A stretch of 64,000 nucleotides of DNA from Candidatus Levyibacteriota bacterium (GCA_963790825.1 CAWBPM010000002.1:359159-423158), one strand, 5' to 3'. Shown: positions 10,679 to 64,000, counted from the stretch's first letter. A program made the numbers and translations. Notes: generated by a model not told the origin, from the sequence alone.

Positions 10679-10684
10679 AGTTTT

Positions 10685-11144: not shown

Positions 11145-11184
11145 CTTAGACTCTAGGTTATTATTTTGTCCAATGGTAAATTTT

Positions 11185-11201: not shown

Positions 11202-11371
11202 ATTGAAATTTCATCGATACATGTAAAATGCCGATTTAGCAAGACAGGTGAATTAAGAGGCTTATTGCTTTTTGTTGTGAATTAAGTTACTGAGTAAATA
11301 AGAATCATTTACATATAGCCTATTGTGCTAAATTTATTGTATATAGTAGAGTTATATAAGATTTATTTAAT

Positions 11372-23985: not shown

Positions 23986-24103
23986 ACCTTCTTATTATAG
24001 CAAGAGATCTGAACAAGAAACAAGTTATAGTATATAACAAGTTTTGCCTGTAAAAGTGTATATCCACTACTTTCTCACTTGTGTTATTATATATTCGTAC
24101 AAG

Positions 24104-25396: not shown

Positions 25397-25398
25397 AT

Positions 25399-26031: not shown

Positions 26032-26039
26032 AGTAAATT

Positions 26040-26546: not shown

Positions 26547-26588
26547 AATAAATCAATAGGGGAATCCACTCTCTTTCTGAAATTTGTT

Positions 26589-27614
26589 ATGATAAGAGGA
26601 ATGAATAGAAGATTTTTAGAAATAGATTTACTGCGCGGCCTGGCAATATTTTCAATTATTCTTATTCACACAAGCTACTATTTCTTAAGCGATAAACTCG
26701 CCTTATTTTTGTGGAATATAAATCAATACTCTGTTCCGGTATTTCTTTTTTGTTCAGGTTTTATTTTTTTCAATCGATATCAAAGTATCGATGGTTTTTC
26801 TTTTTTCGAATATGTATATAAGCGTTTTTGCAGACTTCTTATTCCGTATTATATTTTTTTGGTCTTTTTTATTCCGTTAGTAGCAGTTATTCAACCCGGG
26901 AAAGTCACTTTTACTTACATTTGGCAAAGCATTGTATTAATTGGTGGAGTTGATATTAATTGGTTGGTTTTATTATTTTTATGTCTCAGTCTTCTGATGC
27001 CTTTTATTCTGTACCTTTGGCAAAAACAACGAATTCTTTTTTATCTTTTTACTTTTATTTCTCTTCTTACTTCCTTTCTTTTTATTTTCTGGCATTTTCC
27101 CTTTTCTTATAAATGGATTATGTGGCTTACCTGGTCGGCTATCTTGGTTTTTAGTTTATTTTTTGTTAAAAATAGCTTAAAAAAATGGTTTTATCCAGTT
27201 AGTTTAATAACTTCATCAGCGATCTTTTTGATATTGTATTCGTTAGAAAATTCGCTTCATCATTCACTTTCCTTCTACGATAACAAATATCCAGCAAATT
27301 TTTATTATCTCTCGTATGGTATTGCTGCAATTACTCTGCTTTTTTATCTAGCCAAATATAATTTCTTCAAAACACCAGCCAATAAATTGTTAAATTTTCT
27401 AAGTATTTATTCTTACCAAATTTTTTTCATCCATTATTTTCTGCTTACTTTTTTTGTAAATCTGTTACCGAGATTTAATTTCAACTGGCTGACTTTTTTT
27501 CTGACAGTTTTTATATCCAGTCTTTTACTGCAAAAGTTACTTATTGTAACCCGTCCTTTATCTTTCCTGGAAAATTTATGCAAAAAAAATCAACACATCG
27601 AAAAGAACGATTAG
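26589..27614 (+). CDS. Acyltransferase family 3 (membrane O-acyltransferase)
   Basis: RRFLEIDLLRGLAIFSIILIHT, with about 10 TM helices. Confidence 0.7.
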   Translation: MIRGMNRRFLEIDLLRGLAIFSIILIHTSYYFLSDKLALFLWNINQYSVPVFLFCSGFIFFNRYQSIDGFSFFEYVYKRFCRLLIPYYIFLVFFIPLVAVIQPGKVTFTYIWQSIVLIGGVDINWLVLLFLCLSLLMPFILYLWQKQRILFYLFTFISLLTSFLFIFWHFPFSYKWIMWLTWSAILVFSLFFVKNSLKKWFYPVSLITSSAIFLILYSLENSLHHSLSFYDNKYPANFYYLSYGIAAITLLFYLAKYNFFKTPANKLLNFLSIYSYQIFFIHYFLLTFFVNLLPRFNFNWLTFFLTVFISSLLLQKLLIVTRPLSFLENLCKKNQHIEKND

Positions 27615-27638
27615 TCCAAAATTGCAGCTTTTTCAGTA

Positions 27639-28298
27639 TTACATGATTTCAATCTTTGTTTTTGTTTGTTTTTTATTTTTATAGCGCATAAAAAGAAAGG
27701 CTACGAAGAAAAACAGAAGCGGAATACCGAAGAACAGGAAATAAGTGCGGTGAGCGTGGAGGAGGATAGCTGTTTTGGGACCCAGTCTTCGACCTATGTC
27801 AAGGTATAGCGGTATCCAAAAAATAATTGAAATAAATGTGGAGGCAATAAATGTCTTATACGATACTTTAGAAATTCCCGAGAAAACAGTGATTGGTATG
27901 CGAAACCCCGGAATATGTCTGCCAAAAATAATCACCCATAGACCATATTTTTGAAATTTTTGTTCTACTGCGTCTAGTTTTTTTTGATCCAAATGAATAT
28001 ATTTCCCAATGCTTGTGACAATAAACGGTCCCCACCGACGTGAAATAAAATAAAGTATTGATGAACCCATGAGTACGGCAATTACCAGACTGATAAAGGC
28101 TGTGGGGTAAGAAATTGTTCCTCGGGAAACTTGATAGCCGGTATAAGCAATTACGATATCTCCGGGAACAGGCAGAGGAATTCCAGCTTCTTCGATCATG
28201 AGAAGAAACAGAGGACCCAGAAGCACTTGGTAGTGAAGAAATGAAACAAGGACGTCTTGCAACCAATCATTGTCGAAGAGAATGTTTAACCTAGTCAT
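27639..28298 (-). CDS. DedA/SNARE-associated family membrane protein
   Basis: LFLLMIEEAGIPLPVPGDIVIAYTGY is the DedA motif. Confidence 0.75.
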   Translation of the reverse strand: MTRLNILFDNDWLQDVLVSFLHYQVLLGPLFLLMIEEAGIPLPVPGDIVIAYTGYQVSRGTISYPTAFISLVIAVLMGSSILYFISRRWGPFIVTSIGKYIHLDQKKLDAVEQKFQKYGLWVIIFGRHIPGFRIPITVFSGISKVSYKTFIASTFISIIFWIPLYLDIGRRLGPKTAILLHAHRTYFLFFGIPLLFFFVAFLFMRYKNKKQTKTKIEIM

Positions 28299-28385
28299 TG
28301 GAGATATTATAGTATAACCAGTCTTAAAAATCTCAGTGGACTATACTAGCCCAATCGGAAAGGTTATCTTATTATTTCTAAGCTG

Positions 28386-31028
28386 TTATTGTTCTTTTAC
28401 CGTATGAACAATAATCGGATCTACGACATAATAATTATTATCAACAATATTTTCTTTGATCACTTTATAGGTTGGCATACCTTTTAGCAAACTAAAATCG
28501 ACATTTCGAAAATCGTCATGGAAGAAAATTACTGCTTTGATTCTCGGCATTGATGGAATATCTTTTTTAAGCGTATCGGCAAACCACTGTCCTTTATCCC
28601 CGCCGATACTCGTAGATGAAGTTTCAGTGACCATAATCGGCTTATTAATCTTAATTAACTCCTGATATGCCGCTTGAGAAAGATCTTTAAAGATCGTCCA
28701 TTTTGTTAAAAAGCCGCTTTCGCCCCAGTTAAATCCGCTGTAACCAATCCAATCTACATATTTGTCTCCCGGATAGTAACTAAGCATAGAATCTGAACTT
28801 CCGTATGCATCGGTATTATTCGGAGACCATACCCAAATAACATTATCTGCGTGTTCCTGGGCAAAGATATTATACACATGGATCCACATTTGTTTGTAGT
28901 CTTCGGGCGTATTGCCAAAAGCATTACCCCATGGATACCAGTCTCCATTCATTTCTTGGGCGAACCGGAGAAAGAACGGTTTTTTATATGCAGCAGCTTC
29001 CCGAGCCCAGCTTCTGATAAAGTCATCATACTTACCGCTGGTAATTACTTTTGGATAAAATTCTTCTTGATTGATAATACCTTGGGCTGCCTTCTTCGCG
29101 TCCCATGGTTCCCAGGTGATAACCGGAATAACATTTTGCTCGGCAATCTGATCAACGAAGGGCTTATCAAATCCTGCCTGATTACCCCAATCCTCATAGT
29201 ACATTGCCAGACTTGGCTTCTCTCCCGGGATTATGCTAAGTTTCGGATTATCCGGGTGTTGATTGAGCTGAGGCTGGTAATATCCATAATATGCACCCGT
29301 ACTCGGCACCATTAATTCTTGGGCTATCACTTTTCCCTGCGCCGCATTAACCAAAAGATACATATTATCCATCGTGACTACGCTTCTGAAACTCGGGGTT
29401 CTTGAGATAATTATGCCAAAGACGATAATCATTGCGGGAATAAGTACTCGTTTTATGGGAAAATTAAAATTTCCTAAATGTGCAGTTACGTAGAGCCTTT
29501 CGTCCAATTTTTTTCCATAGTTATCCCGAAGTATTAAGAAAAATCCAAGAAACAGGAAGCTGACATCAAAAGATGCCCAAAGGTAATTAATATAGGTTGC
29601 AAGCGGATTACCGCTCGAGGCTTTCGTTATACTATAGATAAGTCCCGCTAACAACGTAGCCATAACCACAAACTGCAGCTTATAAACCTGAAAAATATTT
29701 TCTTTTTCATACTTTTTAATGGTAACAATAAAAGCCAGGTTTTTCTTAAGGATACTGGAAAGAAAGGCTGAAACAAAGATAGGAAAGGAAATAAGATCCA
29801 ATACCAGACTCTTTAATGGCTCCTTAAAAAGTAGTAAATATAAAATAAAATTAAACATAAAAAGCGGAGCATAAATAAAGGTTAAAAATCCCAGAGTATT
29901 TGCCCGAATCAGTGATACGCCAAAAAATAAGAAGGGGATAGGCGCTAGCATAAGAATAAAATCACGCACTCCGATTAGGTAATATGTAGCAGAAAGAAGA
30001 TAATGAAACTTTTGTTTATAAGTTAACGGACCGAACAATAATTTCCCCAAATAAGTAAATGACGCATCAAATGTGCCTTTTGCCCATCTACGCTGTTGGT
30101 TAAAGTACGCTTTGAGTGTAGAAGGCGCGACTCCAAGAGCTAATACTTTTGCGATAAATACTCCTTTTTTCCCGGATAAATGCAAATTAAGAGAAGTTGA
30201 GTAGTCCTCGGTAATAAAGCGCGTATCCATACCATCAACTGAGTTAAGCGCTTCTCTACGAATGGCAAAATTGGTTCCACAAAGAAAAAGTGCATTATCA
30301 TGCGCCTTTGCATTACAAATATAATCAAAGAAGTATATTTGATGAGCCGCTGCCGCTTTGGCAACCCAAGTCATCTCATTTTTATAGCGCTGAGGAGTCT
30401 GCACAAAGTCAACCGAATCATCAACAAATGGTTTTGTAATTTCTGTTAAAAGTTCCGGCTTTGCAGAGAAGTCAGCATCAAAAACTATGTCAATGGTATT
30501 GTGAGGATCGTAGGTTATTAATTGAGAAATCCCATTATTAATATTTCCGGCTTTGAATCCGTCACTTGAATTACGAGTTGAATAATAAACATTTAAGTCT
30601 ACACAGAGTTGAATGATCTCGTTCCAATTATCTTTTTTCGCAGCATATCCGTCATTAAGCACAACTATTCGCGGCTCTTTGTCAGGATGAACTACAGCGA
30701 TATATTGCTTCACTGTCTCTTTCGCAGCTAATATTGTTTCCCGTACTAATTCTACCGGTTCACCACACACACAAATGAGCAGGTTTAATTCCAAATTTTT
30801 ATTATAATTAATATCGCTATAGGTCTTATATTTTCGTGGCCACAGTGAATAAACCATTCCAAAAAAGTGAAATATAGTGTGAAGCTCTGCCAGAAACAAA
30901 AGGAGACTAAATATAACGAGCGCCGGAGAGAAATTGACCAATTGTATACGCACAAATAAGTATGCCAGGATTAATAATAATCCGTACAATAAAAGGAAGC
31001 GAATAAAAAGTTTTCTCAGGATAAACAT
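28386..31028 (-). CDS. 880-aa fusion of a cellulose-synthase-like processive GT2 and a C-terminal GH26-like glycoside hydrolase
   Basis: N-terminal TMs. DAD, TED (FITEDYSTSL) and QQRRWAKG are the BcsA-type motifs. Further TMs follow. The C-terminal domain carries RFAQEMNGDWYPWG (GH26 RFxxEMN acid/base region), IWVWSPN and IMVTETS (nucleophile region). Confidence 0.75.
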   Translation of the reverse strand: MFILRKLFIRFLLLYGLLLILAYLFVRIQLVNFSPALVIFSLLLFLAELHTIFHFFGMVYSLWPRKYKTYSDINYNKNLELNLLICVCGEPVELVRETILAAKETVKQYIAVVHPDKEPRIVVLNDGYAAKKDNWNEIIQLCVDLNVYYSTRNSSDGFKAGNINNGISQLITYDPHNTIDIVFDADFSAKPELLTEITKPFVDDSVDFVQTPQRYKNEMTWVAKAAAAHQIYFFDYICNAKAHDNALFLCGTNFAIRREALNSVDGMDTRFITEDYSTSLNLHLSGKKGVFIAKVLALGVAPSTLKAYFNQQRRWAKGTFDASFTYLGKLLFGPLTYKQKFHYLLSATYYLIGVRDFILMLAPIPFLFFGVSLIRANTLGFLTFIYAPLFMFNFILYLLLFKEPLKSLVLDLISFPIFVSAFLSSILKKNLAFIVTIKKYEKENIFQVYKLQFVVMATLLAGLIYSITKASSGNPLATYINYLWASFDVSFLFLGFFLILRDNYGKKLDERLYVTAHLGNFNFPIKRVLIPAMIIVFGIIISRTPSFRSVVTMDNMYLLVNAAQGKVIAQELMVPSTGAYYGYYQPQLNQHPDNPKLSIIPGEKPSLAMYYEDWGNQAGFDKPFVDQIAEQNVIPVITWEPWDAKKAAQGIINQEEFYPKVITSGKYDDFIRSWAREAAAYKKPFFLRFAQEMNGDWYPWGNAFGNTPEDYKQMWIHVYNIFAQEHADNVIWVWSPNNTDAYGSSDSMLSYYPGDKYVDWIGYSGFNWGESGFLTKWTIFKDLSQAAYQELIKINKPIMVTETSSTSIGGDKGQWFADTLKKDIPSMPRIKAVIFFHDDFRNVDFSLLKGMPTYKVIKENIVDNNYYVVDPIIVHTVKEQ

Positions 31029-33400: not shown

Positions 33401-34520
33401 TTTTTCGAAAAATAGTCATGAATAAGTCACGATACATATTGGAATCTTAAGGAAGAAGATTCTATGCCAAGTGATTTTAAACGAGTAAGACATTTACGAC
33501 CAAAATACTCACAAAAGAGCTATCATATACTGATGAAAATGCTCCAGAATTCATTAGCAGTTGAAGTATCCGATGTAGCTGCTTTTCGCCTTCACGTGAT
33601 TAATCACTACTACAAGTATGGACTGCGTCCAACCCTTGCTGCATTCAAAATAAAGAAGAGCAGCTTATACAACTGGAGAAATGCTTATGAACACAACGGA
33701 AAAAGGACAATCAGTTTAGTGCCACACGGAACTAGACCTCTCCATGTGCGAAAGATGGAGACAGACTGGAGAATAATTGAGTTCATTAGAGAGATGAGGC
33801 ATGAGCATGGGAATATTGGTAAAAGTATGCTCAAGCCCTTTGTTGATGCGTATGCCAAAGAGCTGGGTATTAAGACCTTGGCAGAAAGTACTATTGGGAA
33901 AGTACTTAAAAGACGTCACTTAACATTTGAGAAGAAAGTCTACCCACAGAAACAAAAAAACAAGTTCAAAAAGCTAAGAGTGAGAAAGTCTCCTAAGGTA
34001 GTTTCTCCTGGATTTATTGAGATGGATTCAGTAGTTGTCTATATCAATTTTGAGAAACATTTGTTTATGTGTGTGATTGATATTTACACAAAATTTGCCT
34101 TAGTTGTATATGTACCGGATCTCTCCTCAGTAACAGCAAGAGAGGTTTTTAAGCAGTTCCAGTGCAATAATCCAACACCGATTCATACAATCCAAACAGA
34201 TAATGGATCAGAGTTTCTCAAATCATTCCATGAGTATATAGTTGAACAGAAAATTAAACATCAATTTATCTATCCCAGAATGCCAAAGATTAATAGTTAC
34301 ATTGAGAGATTCAATCGGACAATCCAGGAGGAATTCATTTTAAGAAATGACGAGATTTACTATGACTCAGAAGCATTTGCAAAAAAGCTCACAAAGTATT
34401 TATACTGGTATAACTATAAGAGGCCACATGCTTCGCTTAAATATATGTCGCCTATGTCCTTTATACAAGCCAAGATTCCAATAAGTGCGTGACGCATACA
34501 AGTCATGCATTATTTTTTCA
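33401..34520 (+). mobile_element. Putative IS element (rve/IS481-like) with degenerate terminal inverted repeats
   Basis: It carries a single DDE transposase ORF. The candidate imperfect inverted repeats at 33401-33435 and 34485-34520 share GAAAAATA ... CATGA ... GTCACG. The boundaries are approximate. Confidence 0.4.
33464..34492 (+). CDS. DDE transposase, integrase core (rve) domain, IS481-like
   Basis: HTIQTDNGSEF ... YNYKRPHASLKYMSPMSF is the rve DDE region. An N-terminal HTH is present. Confidence 0.75.
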   Translation: MPSDFKRVRHLRPKYSQKSYHILMKMLQNSLAVEVSDVAAFRLHVINHYYKYGLRPTLAAFKIKKSSLYNWRNAYEHNGKRTISLVPHGTRPLHVRKMETDWRIIEFIREMRHEHGNIGKSMLKPFVDAYAKELGIKTLAESTIGKVLKRRHLTFEKKVYPQKQKNKFKKLRVRKSPKVVSPGFIEMDSVVVYINFEKHLFMCVIDIYTKFALVVYVPDLSSVTAREVFKQFQCNNPTPIHTIQTDNGSEFLKSFHEYIVEQKIKHQFIYPRMPKINSYIERFNRTIQEEFILRNDEIYYDSEAFAKKLTKYLYWYNYKRPHASLKYMSPMSFIQAKIPISA

Positions 34521-52431: not shown

Positions 52432-53572
52432 CGTATCAAAAATGGCAGTTGCAATAGGTAGTATTACTTGACATTGCAATATAAACAAGTAAAAGATGGG
52501 GTATACGTAAAGTACTTTCAGTATGAAGAAATACAAATGCCCCACGTGTCAATCAACAAGGTCTGTTATCCGTCATACAAAACGAGGAAACTCCATTCGC
52601 TATAAATGTAAAAAGTGCGTAATATATTTTTCCATTAAGACAATTCATCTGGATTCAAAAGCAATATTGAATGATCATTTGGATGGTTTATCCTTTCGAA
52701 AACTAGCTATAAAGTATGATACCTCTTCCATGACAGCCTGGAGAGTATGTGAGGAAGCACTGCTAAAGCTGCCTGATAATAATAAGTTTAGCTTTAAGTA
52801 TTGTAATAGATTTTCCAATATCTATGTCTGCGATGGGAAGTATTTTAATATCAAAGGATTTGAATATGATTATGCACTGCTTTGGGGAATTGATTATTTC
52901 AAACATGATATCCCTGTATTTATCCTTGCACCTTCTGAAAACTATTCAGCCTGGGCAACGTATTTCTCTATCTTTAGAATTCTAAATAGATATATAGAAT
53001 TATTAGTTTGTGATGATAATACTAATCTTAAGCTGGCTGCCAGAAACAGCTTTCCGGAGGTTAAGATTCAAACCTGCTTTAACCATTTCAAAGAAAATAT
53101 CAGAGGGAACCTCAAGGTCAGATCAGATACTACCTATAAACCCTTTATGAGAAGAATTGAGGATATACTCACTGAAAAACTATCAGATGATGCTATGAAT
53201 AAAAAGTTATTTGCTCTTTACAAAGACTATCATACGGATCCTCTCTGTCTATCTATACTGACAAATATTGAGAAATACAAACCGGAACTTACAGCCTACA
53301 GGAATATACCGCGAGCACCTATTACCTCAAATATGATTGAAGGCTTAAATGGTCATCTTGAAGCCCGGCTTTTCTCGCTTCGTTCATTCCAATCCCTAAC
53401 TCATGCTAGATTATGGTTTAACGGATATATCCTGAAACGACGTTTTACTAAATACACTGATTGCAGAGGTAAATTTAGATACATGAACGGGAAAACAGGG
53501 GTAAGTATGACTAAAAAACACGACGTTGTCCTGCCAACGTTTTTTTAATTTCTAACTGCCATTTTTGATACG
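52432..53572 (+). mobile_element. Complete IS element, IS1595-like, with 19-bp perfect TIRs
   Basis: CGTATCAAAAATGGCAGTT occurs at 52432-52450, and its exact reverse complement at 53554-53572. A single transposase ORF lies between. The 8-mer ATAAGTGC recurs at 52419-52426 and 53579-53586 as a possible target duplication. Confidence 0.75.
52523..53548 (+). CDS. Transposase with N-terminal zinc ribbon (IS1595/IS1-like DDE)
   Basis: CPTCQSTRSVIRHTKRGNSIRYKCKKC is the Zn-ribbon. A DDE-like catalytic region follows. Confidence 0.6.
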   Translation: MKKYKCPTCQSTRSVIRHTKRGNSIRYKCKKCVIYFSIKTIHLDSKAILNDHLDGLSFRKLAIKYDTSSMTAWRVCEEALLKLPDNNKFSFKYCNRFSNIYVCDGKYFNIKGFEYDYALLWGIDYFKHDIPVFILAPSENYSAWATYFSIFRILNRYIELLVCDDNTNLKLAARNSFPEVKIQTCFNHFKENIRGNLKVRSDTTYKPFMRRIEDILTEKLSDDAMNKKLFALYKDYHTDPLCLSILTNIEKYKPELTAYRNIPRAPITSNMIEGLNGHLEARLFSLRSFQSLTHARLWFNGYILKRRFTKYTDCRGKFRYMNGKTGVSMTKKHDVVLPTFF

Positions 53573-53583
53573 CTTCTTATAAG

Positions 53584-53656
53584 TGCCGAGGTTCAGAGTC
53601 GAACTGAAATAGCCTGTTCTTCAGACAGGTGCCTTGACCACCTTGGCTACCTCGGC
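53584..53656 (-). tRNA. tRNA-Phe (anticodon GAA)
   Basis: Acceptor stem GCCGAGG/CCTCGGC. Anticodon stem CCTGT/ACAGG with loop CTGAAGA. T-arm TTCAG-TTCGACT-CTGAA. The D-stem has only 3 bp. Length 73 nt. Confidence 0.6.
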
Positions 53657-54450: not shown

Positions 54451-57400
54451 ATGACAGAAAAATCATTGATTCATAGATTAGTAGAAGATCATTCAAGAAA
54501 TCGGGCTTTTAAAAGAATAGCAGCAGAGAAGGGAAATGCGCTGGCTATTGCAGAAATAAATAAAGATACACGTGCGTTCCATAAAAAGAGAGAAGAACGC
54601 AAAATAATTCTTCCATTAAATAACTCTCTCCCGGAAACTCCCGGTACAGAACCAATGCCTGCGTTACAAATTGTACCAACCATAACTGACAGTTCTGAAT
54701 TCATGCTAGATGTAATAAGCGATACACCTATATCATTAAAAGAGCTTTTTTTTCAGACAATATCGGAACCGGATCAATCAGGAAATACAGATCTATTATC
54801 ACCGGTAGCAGAACCAAGATTAGAAAGAGCGTTGGCATCATTCGGTTATGACAGTAATGATTTTTTGCAGCGAATAAAAATTAAACCAGAGGTACCAACT
54901 GAAACAGGACCAAGATTAGAAAGACCACTGACATCGTTCAATCCTGATGGCAAAGATTTTTTGAAGAGAGTAAAAATTGGAGCAGAACCAACAGAAACTG
55001 AAACCAAACAACCGGCAAGTACTCAAACACCAGAGTTAGTTGAGGCACCCGTAATAAAACCTATTGAAATGCCTAGAGGCCGCAGGAAAAGATTTGCCGG
55101 TCGAGTTGCCGTAGCTGCACTTACTTTAGCTGGCGTACTCGGAGCAATGCCTGGCCGTACCAGTGCAGACCAAGCATCCACGACGCCCAGAGCAATAACA
55201 TCAGATTCTTCCTTGGTTATTCCGACTCCTGATATAACTAATCCCATAACCGTCACAACTGTTTTAAGTGGTACCAGAGTAACATCTTCAATTACAGGCA
55301 CTGAGAATATTACCTCAACTAATCCTTTGACGGTAACCGACGCAGCACCTATAACCAGTACGGAAAATATCTCCCAAACTAATCCATTAACTAATACTGA
55401 TGGGATAAGCGATACAAATCCGCTGACTTTAACAGACACCAGTCCAATAAGTCCTACCGGCACTGCGATTGCAACTCCTGAACCGAGTGGTACACCAACA
55501 CCTGATGACCCATCACCAAGTACGACGAGCAGTCCTACTCCGAGCTCTACCGGCACACCGAATCCTTATATTAATCCGGATACTGTTTTTCCGCCAAGTA
55601 TTTATTCTGGCCCACGTGTAGATTACACTATTAATCAACCTGGACCACACGCAATCCTTAAGGAAAGAGTGCCCGGGGATGGATCGACAGATTACGCTTC
55701 AGACACAAAAGATGGATTAGATACAGTATCTGCTATGCTTAACCCAAAAACAAATCAACCTGATCATATGTATGTTTGCCAAGTATATACAGATTATAAT
55801 GGGAAAAATGCCATAACAACGAAATTTGTTGAAAGCAGTTTACTTACTCAGAGTCAACTTAATACCATAACATTACCGGGTAACGGAATAGATCTCGCGT
55901 ACAATGCCGATAAGCTAAACTTAATACCTACCGGTGGGATTAAAACAAACACCTATGCATTTGAAACATTGCCAGGTAATGAATGTGCGCCTAAAGCTCC
56001 GCCACCTCCTTGTAAGACTCCGACGGGAACACCAACGGCAATACCATCTGAAACAGCAACAAATACTCCGTCTGCGACTGCTTCCGAAACTTTAACAGCA
56101 ACGCCATTACCTACTGAGACACCTCAAAATACTCCGACGGGAACACCAACGGCAATACCATCTGAAACAGCAACAAATACAGTAACACCCGTACCGACAG
56201 ACACCTTGACACCGACAGCAACCGCGACTAGAACCGCAACTCCTTATTATCCGCCTCCTCCGCCATATATTCCTCCACCTCCTTATTATCCGCCTCCTCC
56301 GCCATATATTCCTCCACCGACTCTTACCTTTACACCGGTACCGACAGCTACTGCGACGTTTACATTCACGCCGACACCTTCGGCAACTGAAACGTCAACA
56401 AATACGCCAACTATAACTCCAGTTGCAACTAATTCCGAAACTCCGACAGCGACCAAAACCCCTCGCCCACGACCCAGTGCAACTCCCCATCTGGTTAAAC
56501 AAACATGTGAAACAATCGTAAACAAAGTGAAAAACATGAAAGAATTAACAAAGAAGCAAAAAACTAAACTTGAGGAACAGCTTGAAAAAAAATACCATTT
56601 AATATGTAATATAATTCCGACTCCAAGCAGAACTCCGCGACCTACGCATACTCGAACCGCAACAGCTACCCGAACTGAAACTCCAAAACCACCACATACA
56701 CCGACTCCTACTGATACACTTACGCCAACTGCAACAAAAACAGCTACCCGAACTGCAACCAGTACCAGAACTGCTACAGCAACATTTACCTTTACACCCA
56801 GACCAACAGAGACTCATACGCCGACAGCAACACCAACTGAAACTCCAAAACCACCACATACACCGACTCCTACTGATACACTTACGCCAACTGCAACAAA
56901 AACAGCTACCCGAACTGCAACCAGTACCAGAACTGCTACAGCAACATTTACCTTTACACCCAGACCAACAGAGACTCATACGCCGACAGCTACCCCAAGT
57001 GAAACACCAAAACCAACCTCTACCCGAACAGCGACTGCTACAGCCACGTTCACTGCTACCCTAACACCTACTCCTACTGATACACTTACGCCAACTGCAA
57101 CGCGAACATCAACAAGAACACCTACTTTTACTGCTACTCTCACACCGAGACCGACCCGAACTGAAACTCCGGTTCCGCCAACTCCGACGAGAACTGCGAC
57201 GATGGTTCCTCCAAAAACAGGCGCGTTTGCAGAATCAGGAATTTTGTCAGATTTACTCTGGAGTCAACCAGTCAAAAAAGATAAAAACTTTAATAAAATC
57301 TGCTACTACGACTTTTCGAAAAATAACCAGCACGTTAGATACCGAAGCGCTGAAGGATTCATAAAAGGAGTGGCAGCCACTCACATATTGACCGACCCAA

Positions 57401-57681
57401 GTGAATCTGATGAGATAGGAGCTGCTTTACGAAAAATAGGTACTAACGAAACGCCGCAGCAATTAAGGGGTAGCATTATCCAGGATAATTTTAAACCGGA
57501 TGACCCAATTGAAGCCGGCGCATTTAATGAGTTATACGACCAGGAACCAACCATTCGTGATGCAGTTGCCAAAATGGTTGCATCAACGAAATTACAAAAC
57601 AACATGGGACCCAATCAGGATGCCATTTCTTCAGGTCCTTTCATTTATACCAGCATGTGGAAACCGCTTAATGGTTATTAA
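54451..57681 (+). CDS. 1076-aa single-pass membrane protein with a Thr/Pro-rich repetitive ectodomain
   Basis: The N-terminus has two roughly 33-aa repeats (PRLERALASFGYDSNDFLQRIKIKPE / PRLERPLTSFNPDGKDFLKRVKIGAE). TM RFAGRVAVAALTLAGVLGAMPG. A TP-rich region with YYPPPPPYIPPPP x2 follows. Exact 54-aa tandem repeats and a conserved C-terminal globular region are also present. Confidence 0.6.
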   Translation: MTEKSLIHRLVEDHSRNRAFKRIAAEKGNALAIAEINKDTRAFHKKREERKIILPLNNSLPETPGTEPMPALQIVPTITDSSEFMLDVISDTPISLKELFFQTISEPDQSGNTDLLSPVAEPRLERALASFGYDSNDFLQRIKIKPEVPTETGPRLERPLTSFNPDGKDFLKRVKIGAEPTETETKQPASTQTPELVEAPVIKPIEMPRGRRKRFAGRVAVAALTLAGVLGAMPGRTSADQASTTPRAITSDSSLVIPTPDITNPITVTTVLSGTRVTSSITGTENITSTNPLTVTDAAPITSTENISQTNPLTNTDGISDTNPLTLTDTSPISPTGTAIATPEPSGTPTPDDPSPSTTSSPTPSSTGTPNPYINPDTVFPPSIYSGPRVDYTINQPGPHAILKERVPGDGSTDYASDTKDGLDTVSAMLNPKTNQPDHMYVCQVYTDYNGKNAITTKFVESSLLTQSQLNTITLPGNGIDLAYNADKLNLIPTGGIKTNTYAFETLPGNECAPKAPPPPCKTPTGTPTAIPSETATNTPSATASETLTATPLPTETPQNTPTGTPTAIPSETATNTVTPVPTDTLTPTATATRTATPYYPPPPPYIPPPPYYPPPPPYIPPPTLTFTPVPTATATFTFTPTPSATETSTNTPTITPVATNSETPTATKTPRPRPSATPHLVKQTCETIVNKVKNMKELTKKQKTKLEEQLEKKYHLICNIIPTPSRTPRPTHTRTATATRTETPKPPHTPTPTDTLTPTATKTATRTATSTRTATATFTFTPRPTETHTPTATPTETPKPPHTPTPTDTLTPTATKTATRTATSTRTATATFTFTPRPTETHTPTATPSETPKPTSTRTATATATFTATLTPTPTDTLTPTATRTSTRTPTFTATLTPRPTRTETPVPPTPTRTATMVPPKTGAFAESGILSDLLWSQPVKKDKNFNKICYYDFSKNNQHVRYRSAEGFIKGVAATHILTDPSESDEIGAALRKIGTNETPQQLRGSIIQDNFKPDDPIEAGAFNELYDQEPTIRDAVAKMVASTKLQNNMGPNQDAISSGPFIYTSMWKPLNGY
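56677..57000. repeat. Two copies of a 162-bp coding tandem repeat
   Basis: GAAACTCCAAAACCACCACATACACCGACTCC ... recurs at 56677 and 56839. It encodes ETPKPPHTPTPTDTLTPTATKTATRTATSTRTATATFTFTPRPTETHTPTATP(T/S). Confidence 0.8.
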
Positions 57682-58572: not shown

Positions 58573-60069
58573 TTGCTGAATAATAAAATTTACATGCAAA
58601 TTAAAAAACATAGTTGGATTAATTGGTATTATCTGGCTGTTTTGGCTATTTTTTTATTAACAATTTTTTTGCGTTTTTATAATTATCCCAACAGGTGGGG
58701 GCTGGCATCTGACCAGGCAAGAGATGCAATCATTATAGAAAAGTCAATCCAACTCCACTCTCTTCCGTTCATAGGTCCATTTTCAGCCTCAGGTCCATTT
58801 GTTTTCGGCTCTTCGTGGTACATTATTTTTATTTTCTTTACTGCCATTCTACCCAACTCTGTTTTGACACCCTGGATAATACAAGGCATCTTCTTTTGTC
58901 TTATAGTCCTTCTTATGATCCACATCGGAAGAAAAATCGAAGGGAAAAGTCTGGGACTTTTGGCAGGACTGTTTACCGCTCTTTCTACTTCACAAGTAAT
59001 ATTATCAACAAACTTAATCTTTTCCGCTCTTGTAAGTGTCATTAGTGTAATTTGCCTGTATTTTTTTATTAAAGCAATAAATGAAAAAAATAATTATTTT
59101 CTTAGCATTTTAGGTTACTTCATAGGCCTGGCAATTACAATCCATTTTCAGGCCATACCGCTTTTTTTACTACTCATCATCGTGTTTTGTGCGAAACGTA
59201 AGTGGTCATCTGTAATATTTGCGCTTTGGGGCTTTATTCTTCCTTTTATCCCGCTTATTGTTTTTGATATTGAAACTAACTTTCATGAAAGTAGTAGTTT
59301 AATTAAATATTTTTTCTCAGCAAATACTGCACCGATAACTGTTCGCTGGCTTACCTATGCAGGTATATTCTGGCCAAAGGTATGGGCTGATATTATCGGC
59401 GGATATACGCCAATTGGGTATCTTATTATAATTTGTACAATTCTCACAAGTACTATTTTCTTGATAAAAAAGAAAATACCACAAACAATGGTATACGTTT
59501 TATTAGGATTTTTAGGGATAGTTGTAATACTGCGTTATTTCCAGGGCACGTTATTTGAGAACTTTTTGTCATTTCTTCATCCGTTTGTTATTTTGATTAC
59601 TGCCTGGATTTGTCTGCAAATAGTTAAATATAATAAATACCTGGGGATAGGTCTCATAACGATTATTGTAGTATTATCCTTTATTGCCAGCTTCACTGCC
59701 ATTACTAATGCCCAAAATCACACTAAAGATGAGACTATTCTCTTGCAATCCTTCATCGAGAAGAAGTATCCCAATAAGAAATTTGCAATTTATGATTATC
59801 AGTACGGAAATACTGCACAGAGTTTGCCTTTGAGTTTATTTCTTTTTATAAAGCGAGAGACAGGTCCGTCTGGTATTCGGATCGGTATCACAAACCAGGG
59901 ATCGATGAGTCCTCTGTATCCACTTCTTTATCACATCGATCTACCTTATGGAATAAATGTTTATGATTTAAATGGCGCGACACCAGGGGATTTGGCACGG
60001 GACAAATGGATACTCGTTAATCCGCGAGCAGTCTTTAATTCTATGCAGGATTGGTATAAGGAGGAGTAG
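58573..60069 (+). CDS. GT-C fold membrane glycosyltransferase (ArnT/PMT-like)
   Basis: About 12 TM helices. N-terminal RFYNYPNRWGLASDQARDAIIIEKS, with an Asp-containing first-loop motif typical of polyprenyl-phosphate-sugar-dependent GT-C enzymes. Confidence 0.5.
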   Translation: MLNNKIYMQIKKHSWINWYYLAVLAIFLLTIFLRFYNYPNRWGLASDQARDAIIIEKSIQLHSLPFIGPFSASGPFVFGSSWYIIFIFFTAILPNSVLTPWIIQGIFFCLIVLLMIHIGRKIEGKSLGLLAGLFTALSTSQVILSTNLIFSALVSVISVICLYFFIKAINEKNNYFLSILGYFIGLAITIHFQAIPLFLLLIIVFCAKRKWSSVIFALWGFILPFIPLIVFDIETNFHESSSLIKYFFSANTAPITVRWLTYAGIFWPKVWADIIGGYTPIGYLIIICTILTSTIFLIKKKIPQTMVYVLLGFLGIVVILRYFQGTLFENFLSFLHPFVILITAWICLQIVKYNKYLGIGLITIIVVLSFIASFTAITNAQNHTKDETILLQSFIEKKYPNKKFAIYDYQYGNTAQSLPLSLFLFIKRETGPSGIRIGITNQGSMSPLYPLLYHIDLPYGINVYDLNGATPGDLARDKWILVNPRAVFNSMQDWYKEE

Positions 60070-60099
60070 GAAAGAGAACTCTCAGAAACTGATCAAAGT

Positions 60100-60171
60100 G
60101 GACGATAAGGGACTCGAACCCCTGACATTCGCAGTGTAAATGCGACGCTCTACCAGCTGAGCTAATCGTCC
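60100..60171 (-). tRNA. tRNA-Val (anticodon UAC)
   Basis: Acceptor stem GGACGAT/ATCGTCC. D-arm GCTCAGCTGGTAGAGC. Anticodon stem TCGCA/TGCGA with loop TTTACAC. T-arm AGGGG-TTCGAGT-CCCTT. Length 72 nt. Confidence 0.85.
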
Positions 60172-60280
60172 GTCTCCAAATTATAATCGATTTCCCTCTT
60201 TCGATCAAGGATTAGAGCCTTGATTGGACCAAGACGTAGAGCGGTCAGCAAACTTACTTAACCAGTCTTATGGAATATTT

Positions 60281-60487
60281 TTATGTCTTACTTTTCCAAG
60301 CCCGGGCTGCCACTTTCGCATCTGATTCTGATAGCACTTGTATAATAATTCCCATTTGTACCAATACGTATTCTCCCACAGATATTTTTTCGCCGCCGAT
60401 GAGTGCGAACCGCCGTTCACCCGGATATTGAACCACCGCTTTTTTACCTTCAATTTTTATTACTTTTCCCGGTGCCGCAATACACAT
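60281..60487 (-). CDS. hypC: [NiFe]-hydrogenase maturation chaperone HypC/HupF
   Basis: N-terminal MCIAAPGKVIKI is the MC(L/I)(A/G)xP signature. 68 aa. Confidence 0.8.
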   Translation of the reverse strand: MCIAAPGKVIKIEGKKAVVQYPGERRFALIGGEKISVGEYVLVQMGIIIQVLSESDAKVAARAWKSKT

Positions 60488-60711
60488 AGTAAAATAAGTA
60501 TAGAGAATACAACCCGTTAAAGAAAGAGGCTGTATTTTATTTTCTATGCTGATCTGGTATACACCCCTGCAAACAAAATATAATAAGTATAATGCCTAGC
60601 GTAGCTTTGATTCAATAAAACTCTTTACAACAATTAAATCTCCATTTTGTTTTCTCCAGAAGGTATTACTAAAGTTTGCAAAATCAAAGCGAAGTGGTAT
60701 AAGATAGTTTT

Positions 60712-61218
60712 ATGGATCAAGCTGCTTTTCCGCAACAAAAAAAATTGCGTGTCGGTTGGTTTTCATTTACCTGTTGTGAAGACAGTACCATTTTATTTAC
60801 TGAACTTTTAAATGATCATTTTGACGAATGGAAAAAGTTAGTCGATTTTAAATATATTCATCAATTGAAATCAACCAATGATCCGACCAATCTGGACGTA
60901 GCGTTTATAGAAGGCGCGCTTTCTTCAGTAATGCAGGAACAGAAAGTTCTGAAAATTCGTGAACAGGCCAAATATGTGGTTGCAGTTGGCGCTTGTGCAT
61001 GTACCGGACTTCCGTCCGCTACCAGAAATTCTTTCGTTCCGGAACAAATTACGCAGAGAATTGAAGAATATATGAAAACATTTAATTATAATCAGAAAGT
61101 AAAAAAACTTGATGAGGTAATTCGTGTTGATGATATGGTTTACGGGTGTCCGATGAATGTGCAAACTTTTCAAGCAGTTTTGGAAAAATATTTAAAACTT
61201 TTTCAGATAATTCCGTAA
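60712..61218 (+). CDS. [NiFe]-hydrogenase small subunit, NuoB-like
   Basis: FTCCEDS (CCxxE), VGACACTG (GxCxxxG) and VYGCPMN (GCP) give the four Cys ligands of the proximal [4Fe-4S] cluster, as in NuoB and group-4-type small subunits. 168 aa. Confidence 0.7.
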   Translation: MDQAAFPQQKKLRVGWFSFTCCEDSTILFTELLNDHFDEWKKLVDFKYIHQLKSTNDPTNLDVAFIEGALSSVMQEQKVLKIREQAKYVVAVGACACTGLPSATRNSFVPEQITQRIEEYMKTFNYNQKVKKLDEVIRVDDMVYGCPMNVQTFQAVLEKYLKLFQIIP

Positions 61219-61231
61219 TAAAAATAACCAT

Positions 61232-62536
61232 ATGCATTCCGGGGAAATTACAATCGAAAACATTAGCAAAATTGAAGGTTCTGCGGGACTCAAAGTAGTG
61301 ATTGAAGAAGGTACGGTCAAAGACTGTAAATTTATTATCCAGGACTACCGGAGATTTTATACTGACGCCGTAAAAGGAAAACCGCTGGTCGCAGTTCCTT
61401 CTTTCTTGTCCCGCATTTGCGGAACCTGTTCGGTTGCACATTTATTTGCCTGTATTAAGGCAATTGAGCGGTCTCAGGGAATTGAGGTTTCTGGGCAGTC
61501 AAAACTACTTCGTCGGCTGGCTTATGACGGACTGATGATTCGTGATCATGCTTTGCATTTATACTTTTTTGTATTGCCGGATATTCTCGGTGTTGATTCG
61601 ATATTGGATATACCGGATGATGATAACAACATGGGTCATCAGCTTCTCCACGACTCGTTTGACATCAAACGAATCGGTACGGATATTACCAATGTTATTA
61701 TCGGCACTGCAATTCATGCTCCGATTCCGACAGTTGGCGGATTTTTAAGAAACCCTGATCCGACGAAATTTCCCGATCTTGTTACCCGTCTTGAAACAGT
61801 ACGTTTACAAGTAATACGTGGAATTAAAACTTTTTTTGATTGGAAAGAAACTCTCGTCAGAAATTCTGATTACATGTATTTGCGAAGTGACAAACAATAT
61901 GATTTTTTAGATGGTGATATTTGTACCTCGTCCGGAAAACGAGCAACTAACACGGAGTTTCTCAGTTTCCTGGAAAAAGTAATTATTCCTTATTCACAGT
62001 CTGAGGGATATACGATGTCCGATACACACAAAGATTATCTGGTCGGCGCTTTAGCCCGAATAAATTTTAATCAGGATCTGCTTCATCCCCGCACAAAACA
62101 AGACGCCGCAGCATTTCTTACTGCTTTTCCCTCGCATAATATTCATCACAATAATCTGGCGCAAGCTATCGAGGTGCTCCAATGCGTAGATGATGCCATA
62201 GATATTCTCAAAACAATTAAAATTAATCCGGAAGAAAAACCGGTGAAATATTCGCCAGTTGCCGGAATTGGCGTCGGCGTAGTCGAAGCACCGCGGGGAA
62301 TCTTATATCACATGGCAAAAGTAAACGCCCAAGGATTAGTAGAAGATTATGACGTAATTGTTCCGACTGCCCAAAATCAAATTACGATTGAGAACGACTT
62401 AAAAAAATACTTTAACGAAAATTTAGATAAAGATGAGGCGACGATTCATCATGAAGCTGAAAAAATTGTACGGGCTTATGATCCCTGCATGTCTTGCGCA
62501 ACTAACTTTCTCACTATTGATTGGATCCGCTCGTAA
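61232..62536 (+). CDS. [NiFe]-hydrogenase large subunit
   Basis: N-terminal RICGTCSVAH (RxCGxCxxxH). C-terminal DPCMSCATN (DPCxxC), but Asn replaces the canonical His/Arg, and only 9 residues follow the motif. 434 aa. Confidence 0.85.
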   Translation: MHSGEITIENISKIEGSAGLKVVIEEGTVKDCKFIIQDYRRFYTDAVKGKPLVAVPSFLSRICGTCSVAHLFACIKAIERSQGIEVSGQSKLLRRLAYDGLMIRDHALHLYFFVLPDILGVDSILDIPDDDNNMGHQLLHDSFDIKRIGTDITNVIIGTAIHAPIPTVGGFLRNPDPTKFPDLVTRLETVRLQVIRGIKTFFDWKETLVRNSDYMYLRSDKQYDFLDGDICTSSGKRATNTEFLSFLEKVIIPYSQSEGYTMSDTHKDYLVGALARINFNQDLLHPRTKQDAAAFLTAFPSHNIHHNNLAQAIEVLQCVDDAIDILKTIKINPEEKPVKYSPVAGIGVGVVEAPRGILYHMAKVNAQGLVEDYDVIVPTAQNQITIENDLKKYFNENLDKDEATIHHEAEKIVRAYDPCMSCATNFLTIDWIRS

Positions 62537-62877
62537 TTAACTTGCGCATTTTGAGGTACTCCAATAATTGTCACTTTTCCCAATTTATTTAATTTCTTTA
62601 AATACTTTAATTGAAAACCAAGGTCGTAGTCATGCGCGGTTACACTTTTATTTACGGACAATTTGTCAATATCCGCTTCTGTAAGCAAAGTAGCTTCGGA
62701 TAATCCCCGGACAGTGTCAAGCAGTATGACGTGCGCCTGACCGGTAAACGGCAAATCTTGGTTAGGTGGTACGAAAATAAAATTAATCTGAGGGAAAGAC
62801 TTTTACAATTTCCGCGTAACAGTAAATACCGCGTTATCTTCCGGAATATCCTGATTTCCAAAAACATAGATAGTCAT
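62476..62877 (-). pseudogene. Hydrogenase maturation endopeptidase (HycI/HybD/HoxW family), interrupted by an in-frame TAA at codon 25
   Basis: Hand translation from ATG 62877: MTIYVFGNQDIPEDNAVFTVTRKL, then TAA (62805-62803). The same frame continues: KSFPQINFIFVPPNQDLPFTGQAHVILLDTV ... SVTAHDYDLGF ... to the stop at 62476. The N-terminal GN...D, the ILLDTV Asp region and the AHD His region are all in one frame. The 3' 61 nt overlap the large-subunit gene on the opposite strand. Confidence 0.55.
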
Positions 62878-62907
62878 ATTCTGTTTATTTTATCATGGAA
62901 AGGTTGT

Positions 62908-63624
62908 ATGATGGGTTCTATGAATTCAAAAGCTTTACAATTCGCATCCAGATTTTCTCTGCCGCCAAATTCGCTGGGATATTGCGGAAAGAATACAGCT
63001 CCGGCTAGATTTAAAGAATGTATTATTGAAGAAAAATGTGAGAGTGTTGCAAAGGAACTCCGGCAGTTTATAGTTCTTAATCCTTATTTAAAAACACTGG
63101 CAAAAATCAGCAAAAAGCCGAGATTTTCTTACGAAGTTATCGAAAGCTATTGGCTGGGAAATGATTTACTGACACTCGCCAAGAGAGAGCATTATGAATT
63201 ACTTCTCGATAATTTCATTAAACAAGGTGTACCTGATTTTTTTGTTGCAGAACTTCAGAAAAAACAACCTCATCAATTTATACCGAATCATTTGTTCCAA
63301 GTGCTTCATGTTGGCGTCGGAAGAGCAAGCGGTGCCGTACCGTTTTCAATTCAAACGATCAATAACTGCATGATACGCTGGGGAAGAGTAAAAAAAATTC
63401 AAAAAGAGCATATTAATGTTGCACTTCATTCGCTGAGAGAGAAAAAGCATGGTTATATGTTAACAAAACGTGTAGAAAATGTTCCATTTGATTCTCTTCT
63501 TGTAGCAAATATACAAATAAATGACATTGTCGCAGTTCACTGGAATATGGTAATAAAAGTTCTAAATGCGAGAGAAGAAAACAATTTGCAATTTTGGACA
63601 GAACAGGTTATTGCATCCATTTAG
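62908..63624 (+). CDS. Hypothetical protein
   Basis: The likely start is the ATG at 62908 (MMGSMNSK...). The upstream part of the track ORF overlaps the protease gene. Confidence 0.3.
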   Translation: MMGSMNSKALQFASRFSLPPNSLGYCGKNTAPARFKECIIEEKCESVAKELRQFIVLNPYLKTLAKISKKPRFSYEVIESYWLGNDLLTLAKREHYELLLDNFIKQGVPDFFVAELQKKQPHQFIPNHLFQVLHVGVGRASGAVPFSIQTINNCMIRWGRVKKIQKEHINVALHSLREKKHGYMLTKRVENVPFDSLLVANIQINDIVAVHWNMVIKVLNAREENNLQFWTEQVIASI

Positions 63625-63665
63625 TAAGAATTATTTAATTTTTCAGTATTGACTATAAGTATACT

Positions 63666-64000
63666 TCACCCAGATCTGTCATTCTGAGGCTTTGCCGAAG
63701 AATCCCATATATTTTTATCTCCTTTCCTGGTTGTTAACCAGAAAATGCTAAGTCCAAAAACCAGCCAAACAGTTTGAGGTGATAAAATCAATGTCCAGGT
63801 GTGTGTGATAAAGATTACTGAAAGAATATTAGTAATAAGTGTTGCGACTGTTAATACTGACGTAACCACAATTGCAGGGGCATATTTGAGCGCCCGATAC
63901 CAACTCATAACGTACCCAAGCAGTAAAAACATAGTGAGGAGAAACCAGAACCACTGCGTTGGGGTTAAAATCATGCTTTTTGCTAAAGCGTGTGGAGCTA
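63666..64000 (-). CDS. Membrane protein, possibly EamA/DMT-like, C-terminal part only; gene probably continues beyond the window
   Basis: Hydrophobic helices. The ORF is open to the window edge. Confidence 0.25.
   Translation of the reverse strand, partial: APHALAKSMILTPTQWFWFLLTMFLLLGYVMSWYRALKYAPAIVVTSVLTVATLITNILSVIFITHTWTLILSPQTVWLVFGLSIFWLTTRKGDKNIWDSSAKPQNDRSG

Follow-up and report, generated by a model that had tools for sequence, protein, structure and literature searches.

The window analysed here is a stretch of 64,000 nucleotides (nt) from a Candidatus Levyibacteriota bacterium (GCA_963790825.1 CAWBPM010000002.1:359159-423158), in which positions are counted from the first letter. 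Near its end, at 60281-62877, a first-pass annotation had described a minimal [NiFe]-hydrogenase locus, and a two-subunit [NiFe]-hydrogenase locus is indeed present there. By sequence comparison, this locus is a member of hyd2, a clade already published from the Candidate Phyla Radiation (CPR), and the finding itself is hence not new. From its conserved gene context, the locus probably encodes a soluble, heterodimeric, ferredoxin-coupled [NiFe]-hydrogenase of fermentation, the maturation factors of which would be encoded in the same cassette.

The hydrogenase cassette and its placement in hyd2

The small-subunit gene (60712-61218, + strand) encodes a protein of 168 aa that matches PF01058 Oxidored_q6 (2.1e-18) and holds the proximal-cluster domain only. 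It is followed by the gene of the large catalytic subunit (61232-62536, + strand), which encodes a protein of 434 aa matching PF00374 NiFeSe_Hases (1.9e-24). As more than 4,700 large-subunit homologues are found at E <= 1e-10, this match is far beyond chance. A gene for a HypC/HupF-family chaperone of 68 aa, hypC (60281-60487, - strand), lies 224 nt upstream of the small-subunit gene, in divergent orientation, and its product starts with MCIAAPGKVI, as had been annotated. The intergenic region between the two genes (60488-60711) is, from the gene coordinates, presumed to hold the promoters; a promoter and terminator scan of 60000-64000 gave site counts equal to those of shuffled sequence, and no specific promoter is claimed. 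The annotated interval, which runs to 62877, also spans a fourth gene, encoding a maturation protease (62476-62877, - strand), and a gene for a DUF6390 protein of 238 aa (62908-63624, + strand; Pfam DUF6390, 9.4e-31) is the fifth of the cassette. The 3' part of an EamA/DMT transporter gene (63666-64000, - strand) then runs off the window end; tblastn aligns 63723-63998 with the EamA protein of a related locus, L001, at 54 % identity.

Related loci were collected by scanning one genome per species, which yielded 57 loci from Ames-, Levy-, Davies-, Woese-, Collier- and Shapirobacteria, WWE3, Dojkabacteria and other Patescibacteria. The window proteins are 61-81 % identical to their homologues from CPR metagenome-assembled genomes (Ames-, Levy-, Davies-, Woese-, Collier-, Shapiro- and Uhrbacteria (RIFCSP), WWE3 and Dojkabacteria), and the cluster of the next relatives is at most 46 % identical, a placement made by identity and not by tree. 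In the accessible parts of its original description (Jaffe et al., 2020; BMC Biol 18:69, PMC7304191), hyd2 is presented as a CPR-specific, long-branch subclade of group-3b-related hydrogenases, with consistently truncated small subunits (mean 164 aa) and a hypC-like family nearby. Beta and gamma subunits are neither consistently nor proximally encoded, NAD-binding and FeS proteins do occur near hyd2 but not as canonical subunits, and the function is left uncertain (Jaffe et al., 2020). The present locus shares with this clade its CPR host, a long-branch, 3b-related large subunit, a small subunit of ~164-170 aa (168 aa here, with a range of 167-172 aa over the related loci L001-L006), an adjoining hypC and the lack of beta and gamma genes on the same strand. 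The combination of features that the first-pass annotation had found unusual is, on the contrary, that of a described and very populous clade of like members.

Cassettes of the hyd2 type are also found in L007, L030, L035, L036, L038, L047, L049, L050, L053 and L063, despite the non-CPR titles of these records (Gammaproteobacteria, Pseudomonadales, Methanoperedens, Promethearchaeota), which are probably automatic mislabels or stand on mis-binned CPR contigs.

The small subunit and its proximal cluster

The enzyme looks soluble and cytoplasmic, as had been annotated: its small subunit has no twin-arginine (Tat) leader and ends 22 residues after the GCP motif, without any medial or distal cluster domain. 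A single proximal-cluster domain implies that there is neither an internal electron wire nor a built-in diaphorase. The cysteine motifs are FTCCEDS (C21, C22), GACACTG (C95, C97) and GCPM (C146). The last two agree with the annotated motifs, but the first one, T-C-C-E-D-S, is not CCxxE. The first motif of NuoB follows the pattern CCxxE(M), and the tandem-cysteine motif found here is CCED, with Glu at +1 rather than at +3.

The cysteine motifs had led to the small subunit being described as of NuoB/group-4 style, and the locus could accordingly be read as a NuoB/group-4-like, energy-converting module, the membrane partners of which are out of view. MAFFT does place C21-C22 on the CC of Escherichia coli NuoB, and the Pfam family bears the name 'NADH ubiquinone oxidoreductase 20 kDa subunit'; PF01058, however, takes in all [NiFe] small subunits. 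By overall homology, the small subunit clearly falls in group 3. Its best NCBIfam match is the sulfhydrogenase delta family (sulfhyd_HydD, 1.5e-16, against 1.7e-6 for nuoB_fam), its best PDB match is the delta subunit of Pyrococcus furiosus SHI (2.9e-13, aligned over about residues 10-158), and with E. coli NuoB and HycG it shares 19-20 % identity. The first motif reads TSCYGCQ in P. furiosus HydD, CGGCNGCEIE in E. coli HycG and SCC--YVEM in E. coli NuoB. HycG, a group 4 protein, has no CC, and 15 of 54 members of the present family carry CS instead. The tandem CC, the only NuoB-like feature, is a real yet non-universal resemblance. Furthermore, E. coli HycE matches the large-subunit genes of related loci at ~1e-7 (tblastn), and membrane subunits are found in none of the related loci examined. 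An energy-converting module is already contradicted by the present data and appears very improbable.

The conservation of the small-subunit residues was assessed by a MAFFT column analysis of 54 non-redundant family members. C21 and C95 are invariant and C146 is a Cys in 53/54, while position 22 is a Cys in 39 members and a Ser in the other 15, and C97 is a Cys in 46. The neighbouring acidic residues are highly conserved, E23 being invariant and D24 kept in 52 of the 54. Two small subunits, those of L023 and L053, retain a canonical CxxC, in the form CCEGC. No member lacks both C22 and C97, as would be expected if these were compensating fourth ligands of the cluster, but with 0 double-negatives against ~2.2 expected this is too weak to claim, given the relatedness of the sequences.

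The large subunit and its processing site

The large subunit is predicted to be catalytically competent, with a complete NiFe(CN)2CO-binding site. It contains the L1 motif RICGTCSVAH, EAPRG and the L2 motif DPCMSCATN, then a tail reading FLTIDWIRS; L1 and L2 align with RICSFCSAAH and DPCISC of group 3b structures. All three motifs are intact in each of 120 close homologues (the best 120 of the >4,700), which are 431-448 aa long and 70-81 % identical. By best-match scores, the large subunit appears closest to the group 3b alpha subunit, and hyd2 would be a long-branch offshoot of 3b. In NCBIfam, ShyA (9.9e-63; 212 bits, cut-off 700) and HydA (2e-58; 198 bits, cut-off 880) rank ahead of FrhA and VhuA, with scores far below the equivalog cut-offs. 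Among PDB sequences, 3b alpha subunits (5yxy, 9nez, 9e15) match at ~5e-51, followed by groups 3c (3e-44), 3d (5e-29) and 3a (2e-26).

The replacement by Asn of the His or Arg that directly follows DPCxxCxx, reported by the first-pass annotation together with RICGTCSVAH and DPCMSC, is found at Asn426, with an 8-residue tail beyond. Aligning the L1 and L2 motifs shows that the Ni/Fe-binding CxxC pairs are conserved and that the Asn is common to the whole clade: DPCxSCxxN followed by FLK[IM][DE]WI.. is present in 120/120 close homologues. The picture is different among wider relatives, where DPCxxC could be located in 135 of the 150 best representatives and the next site is a His in 127, an Arg in 4 and an Asn in 4. 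All four Asn-bearing representatives are hyd2 entries; in this library-wide HMMER search, hyd2 collapses into one 50 %-identity representative plus fragments. The nearest outgroups, 39-46 % identical, have a similar tail but with a His, for example DPCMSCAAHFLKVKWIKK and DPCMSCATHFLKIRWQ, so that the FLKxxW tail is common to hyd2 and to His-bearing outgroups. The Asn looks like a hyd2 synapomorphy, a His-to-Asn change within an ordinary cleavable extension, and not like a missing C-terminus. Processing after Asn is the most economical reading, because an intact protease of HybD fold accompanies the large-subunit gene in 51/51 related loci, and the endopeptidase would presumably remove the 8-residue tail by cleaving after Asn426.

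An atypical processing site might alternatively point to an H2 sensor or to another non-catalytic hydrogenase-like protein, since sensory group 2b likewise departs from the standard C-terminus; the minimal architecture and the lack of nearby hyp genes would also suit such a role. A dedicated protease and HypC are, however, conserved alongside the hydrogenase, as are all four Ni/Fe cysteines and EAPRG, no signal-transduction genes are linked to it, and the locus lies within a block of fermentation genes. A sensor is hardly credible in view of these features.

Gene neighbourhood and the probable ferredoxin partner

The gene order around hyd2 was established from three independent long contigs and a tblastn survey of all loci. 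The recurring order is hypC (-), small subunit (+), large subunit (+), protease (-), DUF6390 (+), EamA (-), ferredoxin (-), porB (-), porA (-) and a gene encoding acetyl-CoA synthetase (ACS) and FNR-like modules (-). Neighbours were counted over non-redundant loci with enough flank. Besides the ever-present protease, DUF6390 is found in 48/51 loci, the small subunit in 45/47 and hypC in 43/47. For the downstream block, counted over loci with at least 7 kb, the ferredoxin, porB, porA and ACS and/or FNR are each found in 36 of 41 loci, and EamA in 31 of 41. The EamA/DMT transporter is a constant member of the cassette and recurs in the sister-clade loci L067 and L068. The genes outside the cassette vary by locus, with Suf and NicO in L001, PDDEXK in L002 and T2SSE in L003.

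The first-pass annotation had seen no diaphorase, FeS, membrane or hypABDEF genes in the window. This is upheld: none was detected by Pfam among 40 upstream open reading frames (ORFs) of at least 120 aa, which were picked from the ORF list as apparent real genes (an ORF map was drawn for 52-64 kb) and which encode glycosyltransferases, enolase, BipA, HflX, transporters and transposases. A six-frame tblastn of E. coli HypA/B/D/E/F against the window gave no match at E < 0.01 either. Candidate partner genes, which do not encode canonical hydrogenase subunits, begin ~0.6 kb past position 64000. They are seen on L064, a Logan contig that is 99.74 % identical to window positions 60142-64000, with 10 single-nucleotide polymorphisms (SNPs). 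There, the EamA gene (313 aa, 3525-4466) is followed by a gene for a 94-aa ferredoxin (4475-4759) and, further on, by genes for a 234-aa FNR-like protein, porB, porA and a 249-aa FNR-like protein (8166-8915). The porB gene (5570-6429) is split into two ORFs by a frameshift, which is either an assembly error or a sign of module decay. Essentially, both findings that the first-pass annotation had itself named as speaking against it have thus been made: the locus falls in a known group, and candidate partner genes lie just past the window.

In most hyd2 loci, an ADP-forming ACS is fused C-terminally to an FNR-like, FAD/NAD-binding module, in a protein of ~950 aa (18396-21245 in L001). The strain of the window has just the 249-aa FNR module beside porA, without the ACS part.

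The linked ferredoxins all contain exactly three Cys, in a CxxAxxC...CP pattern (40/40), which we take to be a single-cluster motif of 3Fe-4S rather than 4Fe-4S type.

As the closest characterised relatives of the two subunits are 3b alpha and delta, the enzyme could be a conventional group 3b heterotetramer, the genes for its beta (FeS) and gamma (FAD/NAD(P)) subunits lying at other sites of the genome. The FNR-like proteins of the block do match the sulfhydrogenase gamma subunit HydG, but weakly (4.8e-10, 39 bits, cut-off 650), and they fit MmoC, of the benzoate/methane-monooxygenase-type reductase modules, far better (4.7e-37). Genes of the beta or gamma type are present neither in the window nor within 10 kb on either side in the 57 loci, and in the accessible parts of the hyd2 paper they are found with hyd1 only (Jaffe et al., PMC7304191). 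In addition, the small subunit has no C-terminal two-cluster domain of the kind that wires the delta subunit into a 3b complex (168 vs 261 aa): its alignment with SHI delta ends near residue 157 of the 261, and its first motif is TCCEDS, not TSCYGCQ. A dispersed 3b heterotetramer is, on balance, improbable.

Gene context was obtained for three of the nearest outgroups of the large subunit, referred to here as the sister clade. The first, P0362 (46 % identical, with a His at the processing site), has a small subunit of 177 aa with the motif ACCEDS, and its neighbours are a 138-aa protease homologue, DUF6390, EamA and HypC. The second, P0363 (44 % identical, also with a His), lies in a run of closely spaced, same-strand genes encoding an 89-aa ferredoxin (L068 6001-6270), a 411-aa ferredoxin:NAD+ reductase (HcaD, 1.1e-60; AndAa, 1.4e-60), a 158-aa small subunit with the motif SCCEDN, and the large subunit. 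On the opposite strand, the hydrogenase genes are followed by those for a protease homologue, DUF6390 and EamA. The ferredoxin of this run is 42 % identical to that of the window strain (E 1e-19). In the third, P0369 (39 % identical), the motif of the small subunit is a canonical SCEGC, and Pfam finds no DUF6390 at the locus. Of all the evidence for a ferredoxin as the redox partner of this minimal enzyme type, the strongest is the gene run of P0363, which unites a ferredoxin with the two hydrogenase genes; the pairing of that ferredoxin with a reductase implies a soluble, three-component arrangement of NAD(P)H, ferredoxin and terminal enzyme.

Maturation genes

The cassette would encode a dedicated maturation set, in which HypC and DUF6390 are joined by an endopeptidase of HybD type that has diverged strongly. 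The HypC protein of the window (PF01455 HupF_HypC, 1.8e-15; TIGR00074, 1.3e-13) has the N-terminus MCIAAPG, in agreement with MCxxxPG, and all 48 family copies start with an M/V-C-[LI]-A-x-P motif. The His51 of the HypC motif is replaced: the window protein reads VLVQMG where E. coli HypC reads VLVHVGFA, and Q44 is invariant in a 28-sequence alignment.

A His is retained at this very position in a HypC-like domain of DUF6390 (VAVHW). The AlphaFold2 (AF2) model of DUF6390 (pLDDT 84, pTM 0.82) is all-alpha over residues 1-155 and forms an OB barrel plus a helix over 157-237. When family profiles are compared by hhalign, residues 154-232 align with residues 2-66 of the family HypC (probability 91.8 %, E 7e-7), and the invariant C154 falls on the essential Cys2 of HypC. 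DUF6390 thus shares with HypC the OB domain and the helix, but its HypC-like Cys is internal, behind a domain of 150 aa. In the family alignment, C26, C38, C44, H128, C154, H211 and W212 are invariant; no structural neighbour was detected for the Cys-rich, helical N-terminal domain, and the literature searched makes no mention of DUF6390. It is a candidate for a lineage-specific maturation factor. Some JGI records name DUF6390 homologues 'hydrogenase maturation factor'.

The protease is nominally of 133 aa and has the HybD/HycI fold, and it is this fold that settles its identity. The window copy matches Pfam HycI weakly (8.9e-4), and a HycI match is found in 17/22 family members, the best at 1.1e-6. 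Residues G7, N8, D14, D54 and H82 are invariant in the family; in particular, the acidic-Asp-His triad D14, D54 and H82 is invariant in 48, 22 and 32 sequences, respectively, and from its motif position it would correspond to E16, D62 and H93 of HybD, the nickel-recognition triad. The protease thus has its fold in common with the HybD/HycI endopeptidases, but its sequence is too divergent to be found by a PDB profile search.

Over 61 nt (62476-62536), the large-subunit and protease genes overlap in antisense by their 3' ends, as read from the sequence: the stretch that encodes the L2 motif YDPCMSCATNF also encodes, on its other strand, the C-terminal LVAQDMQGS of the protease. Among 51 related loci, 44 show an overlap of 52-61 nt and one more shows 26 nt. 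Such an overlap is absent from sister-clade loci, the proteases of which differ in size and end, and it looks like a hyd2-specific overprinting.

This dual coding was considered as an origin of the large-subunit C-terminus and rejected on two counts. It does not account for the His-to-Asn change, as a His codon (CAY) reads Val/Met in the protease frame and would be under no constraint. Nor is it the sole cause of the conservation of the tail, as sister clades without the overlap keep the HFLKxxW tail.

The stop codon in the protease gene

In the window, the protease gene is interrupted after codon 24. Its 133 codons on the minus strand read MTIYVFGNQDIPEDNAVFTVTRKL, then an in-frame TAA at codon 25 (62803-62805, - strand), then KSFPQINF...VAQDMQGS. 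The stop results from an A at 62805 on the + strand, where L064 has a G, giving CAA (Gln) instead of TAA; this is the sole SNP between the window and L064 that lies outside the large-subunit gene. The stop is also present in the deposited 751-kb contig, in which just a 92-aa protease remnant (P0242), without the invariant G7, N8 and D14, is left. Full-length, stop-free protease genes are found in 48 related loci, and the stop of the window is unique among ~50. Recoding of TAA was considered and rejected, as translation table 11 fits all other ORFs of the window and the codon is CAA in the sister strain.

The locus could be a recently inactivated relic, in which the large subunit stays unprocessed and no active hydrogenase is made in this genome. 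The porB frameshift of L064 and the missing ACS part of the ACS-FNR gene go in the same direction. Against this, the near-identical strain carries CAA, and the stop could be a minority variant or a base-call error. The remaining 9 SNPs, all in the large-subunit gene, comprise 8 synonymous changes and one conservative change, I405L; with 8/9 SNPs synonymous, the structural gene has been under purifying selection, and the other cassette genes are intact. Moreover, the C-terminal extension is, according to the accessible part of PMC7294309, not always essential for cofactor insertion. The TAA would mean either that this strain has lost maturation very recently or that a variant or a wrong base call is at hand; provided that the base is correctly called, the enzyme of this strain may go unprocessed. 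All in all, we consider a relic unlikely, if far from negligible.

Proposed function

A soluble, ferredoxin-coupled hydrogenase of fermentation is the reading that we favour as probable. In this model, a two-subunit 2-oxoacid:ferredoxin oxidoreductase would convert 2-oxoacid and CoA to acyl-CoA, CO2 and reduced ferredoxin, and the ADP-forming acetyl-CoA synthetase would convert acyl-CoA, ADP and Pi to the acid and ATP. Electrons would then pass from reduced ferredoxin to the proximal cluster of the small subunit and on to the NiFe site, where H2 would be formed. The redox partner would be the free, small, 3-Cys (3Fe-4S-type) ferredoxin, exchanging electrons directly with the hydrogenase, and the FNR-type flavoprotein (in the sister clade, the ferredoxin:NAD+ reductase) would link the ferredoxin pool, H2 and NAD(P)H. 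The role of the system would be to release as H2 the reducing equivalents of pyruvate or 2-oxoacid oxidation. It can be likened to a bidirectional, NAD(P)- or ferredoxin-linked group 3 hydrogenase in which a diffusible ferredoxin would replace the hard-wired beta/gamma diaphorase.

The data directly show what the genes are, how motifs and gene order are conserved, the protease fold and the HypC-like domain; the ferredoxin partnership, the catalytic direction, cleavage after Asn, what DUF6390 does and what the stop codon entails are inferred. Several points weigh against the proposed function. The partnership rests on synteny, part of which may reflect vertical inheritance within one radiation; the ferredoxin/oxidoreductase block is not nearby in 5/41 loci, and the ferredoxin could serve the oxidoreductase alone. 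The potential of a 3Fe-4S-type ferredoxin may be too positive for H2 evolution unless H2 is very low, and the direction is accordingly uncertain: such a ferredoxin may favour evolution solely at very low H2, or it may favour uptake. Just three Cys of the small subunit are conserved in its proximal-cluster domain. On the maturation side, hypA, hypB, hypD, hypE and hypF were not found in 1.07 Mb made up of the window and the 10-kb flanks of the 57 related loci, and a search of PDB sequences with the protease family alignment as a profile gave chance SMC matches only. Finally, the protease reading frame is not intact in the window, and this stop, together with the frameshift in the porB gene of L064, may indicate that the module is decaying in the lineage. 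Concerning the hyp genes of hyd2-bearing CPR, no paper was found in the literature searched, and the Jaffe et al. supplements contain no information on these genes.

A more far-reaching possibility, which we put forward tentatively and hold to be rather doubtful, is that hyd2, together with the His-bearing sister clade, makes up a functional subgroup that has so far gone unrecognised. This would be defined by a soluble heterodimer having a free 3Fe-4S-type ferredoxin as its only partner (fed by the 2-oxoacid:ferredoxin oxidoreductase or by a ferredoxin:NAD(P)+ reductase), an atypical proximal cluster with three invariant Cys and a variable fourth ligand, and DUF6390 as its own maturation factor. 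DUF6390 may then stand in for part of the Hyp machinery, of which no component is seen around the 57 loci.

Other features of the window

The 5' part of the window holds two glycosyltransferase clusters, at 781-13588 and 22807-31028. They contain a 1577-aa, multi-domain GT2-GT2-GT4 protein (5945-10678) and an 880-aa fusion of GT2 and GH26 (28386-31028), respectively. A Mutator-family transposase and an rve-type integrase are encoded at 52523-53548 and 33464-34492. A tRNA-Phe gene (53583-53656) lies just downstream of the transposase, and a tRNA-Val gene (60098-60171) lies directly upstream of the hydrogenase cassette. Between them, at 54451-57681, is the gene of a 1076-aa, Pro/Thr-rich protein with TPTxT and PPPPYIPPP repeats and a near-exact repeat of ~60 aa; this region has the strongest GC skew of the window (-0.29).

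Implications

CPR bacteria, or Patescibacteria, are among the most abundant uncultured bacteria of anoxic groundwater and sediment, where H2 is a central currency. hyd2 is widespread in them, and its function was left undecided when it was named; its gene context now provides a testable model. This model, if true, would make the two-subunit, ferredoxin-driven hydrogenase, with its few accessory genes, an attractive choice for producing H2 in a heterologous host. The nonsense codon of the protease gene is at the same time a warning that gene presence alone does not make an organism an H2 producer. The residual interest of the locus thus lies in the ferredoxin-partner model, the HypC-like domain of DUF6390, the hyd2 Asn together with the protease/L2 overlap, and the nonsense codon of this strain.

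Comparison with known systems

The locus differs in nothing essential from hyd2 as described by Jaffe et al. The accessible parts of that account make no mention of the Asn that replaces His or Arg, of the small-subunit motif T-C-[C/S]-E-D, of a protease gene linked to the cassette and overlapping it in antisense, of a HypC-like domain in DUF6390, of the block formed by the 3-Cys ferredoxin, the 2-oxoacid:ferredoxin oxidoreductase and ACS, or of the stop codon in the protease gene of this strain. No follow-up of hyd2 beyond that paper was found in the literature searched.

Both subunits have their closest characterised relatives in enzymes of group 3b, P. furiosus SHI and Thermococcus kodakarensis Hyh (9nez, 9e15, 5yxy). 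The present enzyme shares with SHI a cytoplasmic location, the same residues in L1, L2 and EAPRG, and a C-terminal extension after DPCxSCxx[H]. SHI, however, combines alpha, delta, beta and gamma subunits in a tetramer, of which delta is a 261-aa protein with several clusters and gamma binds NADPH, whereas there are two subunits and one cluster here. The two also differ at the cleavage site, which is a His in SHI and an Asn in the window, and in the first motif of the delta subunit, CxxC in SHI and TCCEDS in the window.

HoxY, of group 3d (PDB 5xf9), is likewise a small subunit of ~170-190 aa that bears the proximal cluster only. It docks on the HoxFU diaphorase, the genes of which are not present here, and the similarity to 3d (5xf9) is weaker, both for the small subunit (6.5e-6) and for the large subunit (4.7e-29).

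Finally, the sister clade is reminiscent of the chains of class-I P450 and Rieske-dioxygenase type, as it likewise pairs a 3-Cys ferredoxin with an HcaD/AndAa-like ferredoxin:NAD+ reductase. Unlike in these chains, the terminal enzyme is a [NiFe]-hydrogenase and not an oxygenase. In hyd2 proper, the flavoprotein is, unlike the sister-clade reductase, an FNR-type module that is often fused to acetyl-CoA synthetase.

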